Positions 51,846 through 60,747 of a stretch of DNA of 64,000 nt are shown here, piece after piece. The first letter of the stretch is position 1. Every line of letters begins with the position of its first letter. Origin of the DNA: Octopus vulgaris (lineage: Eukaryota). The notes beneath the pieces are model-generated. The model was not told the origin of the DNA. It did not search any database and saw only the letters and a list, made by a program, of their open reading frames with translations. The DNA is taken from assembly GCA_951406725.2 (NCBI GenBank), contig OX597825.1, positions 8,060,001 to 8,124,000 of the forward strand. The letters run 5' to 3'. The translations under genes were made by a program, and so were the position numbers.

Positions 51846-51908
<63 letters not shown>

Positions 51909-52337
51909 GGGAATGTTTACGAAAATAAACAAAAGACGAAGGCAGGTGGAGTACAAACAAATAACGTATTAGTATGGCGCTCAGGAATAGAAATAAAACA
52001 AGTCTTTTACGTTTTGAGCCTACGCTCTTCGACAGAAAGATACACAGTAAAGAAACAAGGAGAGAATGAAGGAGAGAAAAAATTGCGTGTAGGGGCTAAC
52101 AATCCAAAATATATATATATATGTGTGTGTGTGTCTTTGTCTGTTTGTGTTTGTCCCCCTAGCATTGCTTGACAACCGATGGTGGTGTGTTTACGTCCCC
52201 GTCACCTAGCGGTTCAGCAAAAGAGACCGATAGAATAAGTACTGGGCTTACAAAGAATAAGTCACGGGGTCGATTTGCTCGACTAAAGGTGGTGCTCCAG
52301 CATGGCCGCAGTCACATGACTGCAACAAGTAAAAAAA
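51676..52337 (+). mobile_element. SINE family A with a nested element in its internal (TA)n
   Basis: 5' half at 51676-51837 and 3' half at about 52125-52337. Confidence 0.9.
51907..52110 (-). mobile_element. About 200-bp (TA)n-inserted element with hammerhead-like core, copy B
   Basis: Homologous to 53011-53165 and 60558-60747. Minus strand reads TCTTT-CTGTCGAA-GAGC-GTAG-GCTC-AAAA-CGTA-AAAGA. Confidence 0.8.
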
Positions 52338-52374
52338 ATATGTATATATGTATATACATATATATATATATATG

Positions 52375-52443
<69 letters not shown>

Positions 52444-52446
52444 ATA

Positions 52447-52604
52447 ATTATATAAAGGGTTTGGCTATAAGCTTCTCCAAGTGCTAGTAAAATAGACGCC
52501 AAAAGACGCTATTACCAGCATAAAATTTTAAGGTAGTAATAACGTCTTTCCGCGTCTATTTTTCCAGCGCGTTGAGAGGCTTATAGCCAATCCCTTGTTA
52601 TAAT
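52447..52604. mobile_element. Foldback/MITE-like inverted repeat
   Basis: Arms AAGGGTTTGGCTATAAGC..AAAATAGACGCCAAAAGACGCTATTAC and GTAATAACGTCTTTCCGCGTCTATTTT..GCTTATAGCCAATCCCTT. Confidence 0.75.
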
Positions 52605-52806
52605 CATGGATATAATTATTAAAATATTTGTAAAATTTGCCTGTAAGTTTTTATTCCTGCGCTGCCCCGCTGGTAAAATCATTAATTAGTTTTACCTTTT
52701 ACAATAATATATATACAGTATAGGACAATCAGTAAGTTGTCATAATATAACTCAGTGTTCCAAATGCCCAGAAACTCTGAATTCTATGACAACTTACGGA
52801 TTATCC

Positions 52807-52846
<40 letters not shown>

Positions 52847-52949
52847 CACTCAATTTTTCTGCTATAGAAAGGACACTGCCAATAGATGTTTATATACATT
52901 TGAATATTCACACGCATAAAGTATATATGAAACAAGTAAATATGTTAAT

Positions 52950-52980
<31 letters not shown>

Positions 52981-53010
52981 GCATACACATACACACACAT
53001 ATTCATATAT

Positions 53011-53165
53011 AGTGGAAATTTACAGAAAAACAAAAGACGAAGGCAGGTGTATAAACAACAAGCAGGTATATTAGTTTAACGCTCGGGAAGGTGAGAAAGT
53101 GTTTCACGTTTAGAGCCTACGCTCTTCAACAGAAAGGGACACGAGGAAATAAACACAGAGAGAAT
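53011..53165 (-). mobile_element. About 200-bp hammerhead-like element, copy C (partial)
   Basis: Minus strand reads CTTT-CTGTTGAA-GAGC-GTAG-GCTC-TAAA-CGTG-AAAC. Confidence 0.8.
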
Positions 53166-58424: not shown

Positions 58425-58494
58425 GCCATGATACAACTCCGAGTTTCGGAAGCCGCGGTGGAAATCCACGCTGCCATCTCTTCAGTTATCCGGC
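58425..58494 (-). ncRNA. Type I hammerhead ribozyme candidate
   Basis: Minus strand reads GCCGGATAA-CTGAAGA-G(hairpin)C-GAAA-CTCGGAG-TT-GTATCATGGC, with both core boxes and stems I-III present. Confidence 0.6.
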
Positions 58495-58721
58495 ATCGGA
58501 AAAATGCTATGAAAAATGACCGTTATACAAAGGGAAATTATTGAGATTGACCGTTTTGTTGTCTTACTGTTTTTATCAATATATATATACTTTATTTAAC
58601 GTGAAGCTCCGAGTAACAGGTCTCGTTGAATTTCTGGTGCTTTTAAATAAAGCATATTACTCTCCCCCTGGTATTTCAGTACTCTTTTTTTCCACCTTGT
58701 TTCACATTTAGTGTTTATTCT

Positions 58722-58757
<36 letters not shown>

Positions 58758-59591
58758 GCCCGTTATTCCTTCGTGCTCGTACATCATATCAATGTAATAT
58801 TGCTCTTCAAACGATTGGAATTTTCTCGTAGAATTGATTGGTTTTACTCGAAAGTGAAAGTAAGCGACAAAACATATGAGGAGAGAGAAGAACAAATCCT
58901 TTTGCCATACGGAATTTATAAGTATTCATATTCAAAGATCAAACGCTGTTGTTTCGACGAATGATAGAATATGTACTAATCTAATTGTCGCGAAGATGTA
59001 TTTGAATATATCGTATGTAGAAAATGTTCATAAAAGAATGGCAGGTTTGTATTAAAAACTCGTTCTCTTTTCTAAGATTACACTATTTCCATTTCAAATT
59101 TTCATATTTTGGCCCAAATATATGCACAAATTAAGTTTGCACATCTTTGATAGGAGGAAAATAAATAAAATCAGTTAAATTCAATAACAAAATCCAGAAA
59201 TTTGTAATATGTTTAATAAGTAATAATTAGCAAATGAGTGAAATAATTCTGGTTTCTTTGAACGTGGTTATTAGCTAATTGGATAATTGCTCACGTACGT
59301 ATATTTGTATACTCACGCACATGCACATAAACACACGCACACAAATATATATAAAGACATATATATATATATATACATATATACATATATACTTGTAAAT
59401 TTGTGTGTTTATGTAATTATATTCCCATAAGTTTTATACGTGTATATATATATATTTTTATGTCAATACATCTCAACACTTCTAAGCAAGCTTTGCTTGT
59501 GGTCTTTCAAAGTAAGTTGAATTTAACGTACGATAGCATCTTATAAAGCTAGATTTATAAATCCCAAATTTGCAGAGGAATCTGTCATTGG

Positions 59592-59663
59592 AGCAGTTTA
59601 GCTTAATGGTAAACCACTTGACACGTAATCACAGAGACATGAGCTTGGGTCTCATGGCTGGCC
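59592..59663 (+). pseudogene. Decayed tRNA gene, Thr(CGT)-like
   Basis: 72-nt cloverleaf remnant: TAGCTTAATGGTAAA, CTTGA-CACGTAA-TCACA, ATGAG-CTTGGGT-CTCAT. T5 at 59672-59676. The T loop and U33 are mutated. Confidence 0.6.
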
Positions 59664-59940
59664 GCCTACAGTTTTTGTCTGCAAAATATGGATAGTTTAT
59701 GCCGTTCATGCTATATTATTTGCATTACCATGCGTCTGAGAATAAAATTTCCTTGTCTATATCTTTCAAGGCTTCGAAATAAAAAAAATCTTTTGACTTT
59801 CAAGGTAAGTTGAATTTAATAAATATATCTCGGATGAAAATATTTCTTCCATTTAATTTTCCAAAGTTTTTTCTTATTATACTTTATTTAAGGGATCCTT
59901 TCATTTCTGTATAAATATATATAAATAGAAAACATCAGCA

Positions 59941-60338
59941 GAATCAAGTTTTGATGCTTATATGGATTATTCATTTAATTTAACCAGACAGCTGTTTCTG
60001 ACGCAAAACACCATATTTCGGGTATACAATTGAATAATAGGTATTTTAACAAAAGTAATATGCATTATTATATTAAGTCATTAGGATCTCATCAGTGGAT
60101 AATAATTAAATGTTTTAATATCTAAAATTAGCACCTTTAGTTTTAATCTTTGTGATCGTTTTAAATATTTAATTATTATCCACTGATGAGTTCCAATTTA
60201 CTTAATATAATAATATTTATTACTTTGGTTGAAGTCCCTATTCTTCAATTGTTTACCAGTAATATGGTCTTTTGTGACAGAAACGGCTGTCTGGTTACAT
60301 CAAATAAACAATCCATATTAGCACCAAAACCTGTTCCA
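59941..60338. mobile_element. Inverted pair of about 175-bp arms, each with a hammerhead-like motif (Penelope pLTR-like)
   Basis: Arms at about 59941-60117 and 60161-60338; each reads ATCCA-CTGATGAG...AGAAAC(A/G)GCTGTC-TGGTT. Confidence 0.75.
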
Positions 60339-60374
60339 TTTATTTGATGACATTTCTTGAACTCTGTCTAATAA

Positions 60375-60430
60375 ATTGAGCTCACAACCTTATGATTGCA
60401 ATGCAGATTCTCTAACCACCGAGTCATGTG
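60375..60430 (-). mobile_element. tRNA-like SINE head fragment
   Basis: Reverse complement CATGACTCGGTGGTTAGAGAATCTGC..GTGAGCTCAATT. Confidence 0.5.
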
Positions 60431-60557
60431 TATTCATCTATTTGTATTCATATATATATATATATTTATACTCATACACACACACATGCACAGACACACA
60501 CATACACACACGCACACACACACACACATACACACACATATATATATATATATACAT

Positions 60558-60742
60558 TCACTATGATAGATCACTAGCCACTACACATTCTTTATTTTCT
60601 TTCCTTGTTTCTTTCTGTGATCCTTTCTATGGAAGAGCGGAGGCTCGAAACGTTAAAGATGTTCTCACTTCCCGAGCGTTAAACCAATACATCTGTTGGT
60701 TGTCTACACCACCTACCTTTGTCTTTTTTTTGTGACTTCTCC

Positions 60743-60747
<5 letters not shown>
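60558..60747 (+). mobile_element. About 200-bp hammerhead-like element, copy A, between (TA)n tracts
   Basis: CTTT-CTATGGAA-GAGC-GGAG-GCTC-GAAA-CGTT-AAAG at 60623-60658. Confidence 0.8.

Follow-up and report, generated by a model that had tools for sequence, protein, structure and literature searches.

Three related repeats in a 64,000-nt stretch of the Octopus vulgaris genome (contig OX597825.1; the whole stretch is hereafter called the window) share a short motif resembling a hammerhead ribozyme, which raises the question of what kind of element left them behind and whether the motif can cleave. The copies are located as follows.

51907..52110, (−) strand: copy 1, ~204 bp, inserted within the internal (TA)n of a SINE
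about 53010–53165, (−) strand: copy 2, more strongly truncated at the 5′ end and ending 3′ in a short stretch of TA
about 60555..60746, (+) strand: copy 3, ~190 bp, with (TA)n runs on either side

Three homologous repeats and their insertion sites

Pairwise identity among the three copies is 75–79% (BLAST E-values of 1e-20 to 1e-26), which establishes as real the three homologous elements that a first-pass annotation of the window had reported; the places it gave are right, except that copy 3 starts at ~60555 rather than 60558. Neither nhmmer nor a covariance-model search based on the three motifs detected a fourth copy in the window.

The same annotation had placed (TA)n on both sides of two copies and had described one copy as nested in a SINE's own (TA)n. 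Both observations are confirmed, with copies 1 and 3 being flanked on either side, copy 2 having its TA run at the 3′ end only, and copy 1 lying in the internal TA/TG microsatellite of its host. The surrounding features are as follows.

51666..52355, (+) strand: host SINE, with halves at about 51666–51840 and 52128–52352 that are split by copy 1
60747..60800, (+) strand: (TA)n run adjoining the 3′ end that the copies share; the predicted cleavage site is ~90 nt upstream

The host SINE differs by 9–12% from the majority of the other SINE copies in the window, and the SINEs of the window are also associated with TA runs. Five other SINE copies contain the same TA/TG microsatellite without an insert, indicating that (TA)n is the target of insertion and not only a tail.

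Beyond the window, the family was sampled by aligning two DNA and two RNA sequencing runs (4 of the 24 listed) to copy 3 at 80% likeness, a sample biased towards the subfamily of copy 3. Matches amounted to 5026 and 4597 contigs in the DNA runs and to 1387 and 1416 reads in the RNA runs. The family has a very high copy number, and a rough depth ratio gives 1–5 × 10^4 copies (depth itself being no copy number). The 3′ loose ends of the family reads continue into TA-rich sequence; together with the target of copy 1 and the flanks of copy 3, they support the proposed association of the element with (TA)n, in a window where ~8–13% of positions are no more than 10 nt from a TA run.

The 3′ end, ~90 nt past H17 of the motif, is common to all three copies, and each has a 5′ end of its own. 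Loose ends upstream of 60555 agree on one and the same 30-nt extension in all four runs (140 and 269 reads; 47 and 37 contigs), and a longer form of the family with at least 30 nt of conserved upstream sequence therefore exists. A further 68 and 28 contigs begin near 60556–60563, preceded by unrelated or TA-rich sequence. The extension does not occur in the window, where a search at 3 mismatches gave a single match versus 1.4 expected by chance. One reading frame is open through the extension and stops at TGA TAG (60564–60569), but at 13 codons it is too short to weigh. The varying 5′ ends and the upstream extension are explained by 5′ truncation of a longer element no less well than by a discrete unit of 200 bp, and both 5′ truncation with a common 3′ end and insertion into (TA)n, as in Neptune-type Penelope-like elements (PLEs), are found here.

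A minimal hammerhead motif with U at core position 6

The hammerhead-like part of the copies is 36 nt long, aligns without gaps and is invariant in 30 of 36 columns; its layout is given below.

52004..52039, (−) strand: motif of copy 1, with U6 at 52032, G12A, and A as H17 at 52008
53101..53136, (−) strand: motif of copy 2, with U6 at 53129, G12U, G at position 17, and the outer stem I pair broken
60623..60658, (+) strand: motif of copy 3, a minimal hammerhead with G5A private to this copy
60623–26/60655–58, (+) strand: stem I of copy 3
60627, 60630, 60631 and 60634, (+) strand: C3, position 6 (U), N7 and the extra A of copy 3
60635–38/60643–46, (+) strand: stem II of copy 3, with G12 at 60647
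60650–53, (+) strand: palindromic ACGU of copy 3, with H17 at 60654

The consensus of metazoan PLE hammerheads comprises CUGANGAH, G..C, GAAA, a palindrome and UH (PMC4209133). In the family majority, we found C3, U4, G5, N7, G8 and A9, followed by G12, A13, A14 and A15.1, and then U16.1 and H17, as well as an additional nucleotide that follows position 9 and precedes 10.1, the G10.1–C11.1 pair and the palindrome at 15.2–16.2. Only position 6 departs from the PLE-type consensus, having U instead of A in all three copies. Sequence comparison thus supports a reading of the motif as a homologue of the PLE-type minimal type I hammerhead, in agreement with the first-pass annotation. An A between A9 and G10.1 is likewise present in all three copies; it had been considered unusual but belongs to the published consensus, with 54 of 56 published motifs carrying an extra base there (A in 30 of those; PMC4209133). 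A6, in comparison, occurs in 56 of the 56, but the descriptor used demanded A and the count is biased accordingly (PMC4209133). As the annotation had noted, the copies also differ in private core damage, visible in each of the aligned motifs: one change each in copies 1 and 3 and two in copy 2 (G12A in copy 1, G12U and the position-17 G in copy 2, and G5A in copy 3).

The closest published motif is that of an Acropora digitifera Neptune element (Cervera and De la Pena 2014, PMC4209133, Fig. S3), which has an identical layout, identical stem II and loop lengths and an identical 3′ strand. More generally, the family shares with the minimal hammerheads in PLE terminal repeats (pLTRs) the type I topology, short stem I, extra nucleotide, G10.1–C11.1 pair, 4-bp stem II, 4-nt loop, CG palindrome for helix III and UH site, and its copies are mostly solitary, as reported for those motifs (PMC4209133). 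Unlike them, it has U6, and no link to an open reading frame (ORF) was found for it here. A natural change at the equivalent core position occurs in the A6C hammerhead of phage Bcep176 (PMC3088659, PMC7151607); however, that change is to C and not to U, it is found at one locus of a phage and not in an animal repeat of high copy number, and its activity has been measured (low, better in Mn2+).

Stems I and II can pair in 23 of 24 cells across the three copies, with a predicted pairing probability of ~1 for stem II and ~0.35 for stem I. No compensatory change was seen among the 8 stem pairs, in a comparison of only three copies whose stems are nearly invariant. Variable columns are fewer at structure/core positions than at free positions of the motif (3/30 versus 3/6, P = 0.045, three copies) and fewer than outside the motif (47/110, P = 0.001), the latter comparison being partly circular because the motif was chosen for its conservation. 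By a composition-based estimate, the chance of such a motif with one core mismatch is 1–4e-7 per 200 nt. Single copies fold no better than shuffled sequences (z = −0.01, −1.87 and −0.39). In the U6 monomer, U4-G5-U6 is predicted to pair with A15.1-C-G, the ACG of the 3′ strand, with a probability of 0.45–0.97; the A6 version is likewise predicted to misfold, so the comparison of the two is indecisive. The Rfam hammerhead models, which the first-pass annotation had proposed as a check, gave no match to copies 1 or 3 at E-values up to 10, and no hammerhead is present among the 150 listed of 268 Rfam matches to the whole window. A strict hammerhead descriptor found zero matches across the window, since each copy is degenerate.

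Family-wide U6 and the question of cleavage

In each DNA run, one T>A and one T>G place reach a frequency of at least 4%, at 60654 (H17) and 60728 and not at 60630, the site of position 6. As the sole T>A place lies elsewhere, A at position 6 is below 4% in both DNA runs, and U6 is the state of the family among copy-3-like sequences rather than a product of decay. The U that the annotation had seen at this position in the window copies thus extends well beyond them. Its reading of N7 as a pyrimidine proved wrong, with copy-3-like DNA contigs having T in 17–20%, C in ~2% and, for the remainder, mostly the G of copy 3. All A>N places in the DNA runs are accounted for, and no core A is among them except at the G5A of copy 3, a site that is G in 95–96% of the DNA contigs. 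Among the variants listed, the polymorphic motif positions are N7, the first base of loop II (8–11%) and H17 (U/A, with A at 15%) only. A further 39 variants lie beyond those listed; each DNA run has one T>C place, one G>A place and two to four C>T places that are unassigned, which leaves room for a C at position 6, or for CpG decay within the core, at 4% or more. Several T>A places of the RNA runs are likewise outside the listing. Copy 1 differs by ~21% from the copy-3-like majority, more than the 9–12% of its host SINE, and its divergence is therefore in part that of sublineages from one another; the U6 motif has stayed fixed across them.

Published work suggests that such a core is impaired. 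Changes at position 6 lower hammerhead activity (PMC3088659, PMC7151607, PMC9901934): the A6C variant cleaves slowly and prefers Mn2+ (PMC3088659, PMC7151607), and a pairwise mutagenesis of a type III hammerhead found low activity for single CUGA-turn changes and reportedly no second change that rescued them (PMC9901934). Even with A6, the PLE motifs show weak activity, and a dimer or protein may be needed (PMC4209133, PMC6765202, PMC11167929). The hammerhead of a Poseidon element from Anolis is protein-assisted, is dispensable for insertion in vitro and reportedly leaves no cut ends in RNA-seq (PMC11167929).

The two RNA runs showed no piled read ends at the predicted cleavage site, in fragmented and apparently unstranded libraries, and no fall in depth across H17, for which these libraries are poorly suited. 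Family reads amount to ~110 per million, with both strands about equally represented. No head-to-tail joint is listed in either DNA run, a test limited by short contigs. In RNA, a few joints lead back inside the unit (6 reads from 2 starts; 2 + 2 reads). As regards partial tandems or inverted copies of the kind that form pLTRs, only two RNA joints, of 2 reads each, return from the 3′ end into the unit. The libraries are of a type unsuited to detecting circles. Overall, we predict that the U6 hammerhead is a slow or dead ribozyme with a fold that is still constrained, and each copy in the window is most probably inert, being solitary and carrying a further core mutation.

Origin of the repeats

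No PLE reading frame was found in the window among 142 stop-to-stop frames searched against Pfam (138 of 160 script-picked frames, after 22 that overlapped SINEs were left out, plus 4 added); these yielded only LINE reverse transcriptase (RT), a mariner remnant and one sub-threshold KxDL match. Pattern scans of viral contigs (0 and 0) and of GTDB (0) gave no motif matches, and five matches in metagenomes, all at loci that are GC-rich and unlike the window in sequence, were judged to be chance. Penelope-like families are abundant in O. vulgaris, some of them recently active (PMC13282606; also PMC8967140). PLEs are often 5′-truncated, with a bias towards (TA)n in Naiad and towards microsatellites in Neptune (PMC8557442), and members of both clades (including Naiad_Obim and Naiad_Ovul; Craig et al. 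2021, PMC8557442) resemble the present family in being 5′-truncated and located in (TA)n. A point of difference is that Naiads lack canonical hammerheads (PMC8557442). A string search of the Naiad/Hydra/Chlamys supplement (PMC8557442) with 12 short family motifs gave two chance matches only (line breaks may hide others); judged by such strings, the published octopus Naiads lack the family's motifs, and Naiad was rejected as the parent.

We consider it somewhat more probable than the alternatives combined (~0.55) that the copies derive from a Penelope element, probably Neptune-like, that targets (TA)n, and are 5′-truncated versions of its terminal repeats (pLTR/3′ UTR), with a U6 hammerhead predicted to cleave slowly or not at all. 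The element's GIY-YIG endonuclease would nick (TA)n, and RNA copying by its RT would begin at a fixed 3′ position ~90 nt beyond the hammerhead, usually stopping early and leaving ends of 150–200 bp. In the Poseidon element of Anolis, RT starts 111–118 nt into the ORF and the cut site lies at +26 (PMC11167929), a spacing similar to the ~90 nt between H17 and the 3′ end here. The A6-to-U change may have become fixed in the master lineage while the stems and other core bases stayed constrained, and the constrained fold would probably be used with the element's own protein. More tentatively, and at less than even odds, this may be a Penelope-related lineage of tens of thousands of copies in which U6 is fixed and the rest of the fold is under selection, the motif being a ribozyme that protein or Mn2+ rescues, its core absent from the papers searched, or else a dead fold kept as a protein-recognition signal.

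The strongest competing explanation, which we regard as rather unlikely, is that the repeats are a discrete, non-autonomous derivative of a PLE terminal repeat (~190–250 bp), mobilized in trans by a PLE protein, with a U6 hammerhead that still cleaves as a dimer or with the help of protein or Mn2+; it corresponds to the non-autonomous, PLE-mobilized family proposed in the first-pass annotation. Short pieces at very high copy number, the many contigs (68 and 28) that start near one 5′ boundary and the constrained motif are all in keeping with such a unit, as are the cleavage of the natural A6C variant, better in Mn2+ (PMC7151607), and the existence of other non-autonomous PLE derivatives (bioRxiv 10.64898/2026.07.22.740005, PMC8557442). 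However, no two of the three copies have the same 5′ end, the family includes a longer conserved form, and the RNA runs gave neither piled ends nor a depth fall at the predicted site. Activity of the U6 core is further disfavored by the low values, without rescue, for single CUGA-turn changes in the type III hammerhead (PMC9901934) and by the predicted mispairing of U4-G5-U6 in the monomer (0.45–0.97), though the A6 version misfolds too.

It is improbable that an unrelated LINE or SINE contributed the repeat as its 3′ end, with a likeness to a hammerhead that reflects a chance hairpin used for RT recognition. This would accommodate the missing covariation, Rfam match and PLE link, the difference at an essential core base and the TA runs near the SINEs of the window, but all other core positions, the G10.1–C11.1 pair, the extra nucleotide, the palindrome and both stems fit, for which the chance estimate is ~1e-7 per 200 nt, and variation is concentrated at N7 and H17. 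Metazoan non-LTR retrozymes are likewise short, non-coding, PLE-related and of type I (PMC7229834; bioRxiv 10.64898/2026.07.22.740005), but a classical tandem retrozyme expressed as a small circular RNA is very improbable despite a unit size within the published ~170–400 nt (PMC7229834) and the few RNA joints back within the unit, given that the copies are solitary and TA-ended with no tandem arrangement or head-to-tail joint listed in the DNA runs, that RNA is scarce (~110 reads per million), about equal on both strands and, in libraries unsuited to circles, without signs of abundant circular RNA, and that the motif is minimal, while published retrozymes use canonical type I hammerheads (PMC7229834).

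The kind of motif and its setting are already known and ordinary; the family-wide U6 is the exception. No earlier report of the U6 family or of the repeat's sequence was found in the literature listings searched. For one PLE hammerhead, an in vitro study found that cleavage could be dispensed with (PMC11167929). A family as successful as this one, with a core position changed for good and yet conserved stems, is a natural test of whether PLE hammerheads need to cleave for mobility. Descriptor searches that demand CUGANGA can miss whole high-copy families, and, if the reading as a novel U6 lineage is true, standard descriptors would overlook such hammerheads whether the fold is a rescued ribozyme or a dead one.

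Transposon remnants, SINEs and a U6 snRNA fragment

The window contains the following interspersed features, in which palindromes 52424-52627 and 52707-52821 lie between copies 1 and 2 of the (TA)n-associated hammerhead repeat:

19984-21955 (+): disrupted LINE remnant; Pfam RVT_1 matches at 20648-20953
55044-55738 (−): broken mariner transposase remnant (Pfam PF01359, PF17906)
27822-27890 and 29529-29597: inverted pair, 69 bp each, 91% identical, 1.6 kb separation
52424-52627, 52707-52821 and 59945-60333: imperfect, MITE-like palindromes of 115-390 bp
scattered over 9560-58190: two-part SINE, ~10 copies, whose internal TA/TG microsatellite varies in length between copies
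10385-10736, 36335-36558, 43097-43243 and 49356-49593: second SINE-like family
34203-34261 (−): U6 snRNA fragment, Rfam score 47.5, above the gathering score of 44

The 69-bp inverted pair may represent the ends of a DNA transposon. The U6 snRNA fragment is terminated by an A run and is probably a retrocopy.

A second (TA)n-flanked repeat

Another (TA)n-flanked repeat is present in two copies with 82.5% mutual identity:

4280-4660: fold-back repeat, first copy
62950-63280: fold-back repeat, second copy

Both copies consist of a long fold-back with an extension on one side only, a structure that resembles the inverted layout of Penelope-like element insertions. Their arms contain GAAA, a 6-nt palindrome and TC, and lack the CUGANGA box of the hammerhead core.

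Subfamily markers in the hammerhead repeat

Among DNA contigs aligned to copy 3 of the hammerhead repeat, the subfamily markers at 60667-60668 reached 20-28% in the run from organism E, compared with 0.4-3% in that from organism A. This difference in marker frequency between runs suggests that the hammerhead repeat family was amplified in a lineage-specific manner.
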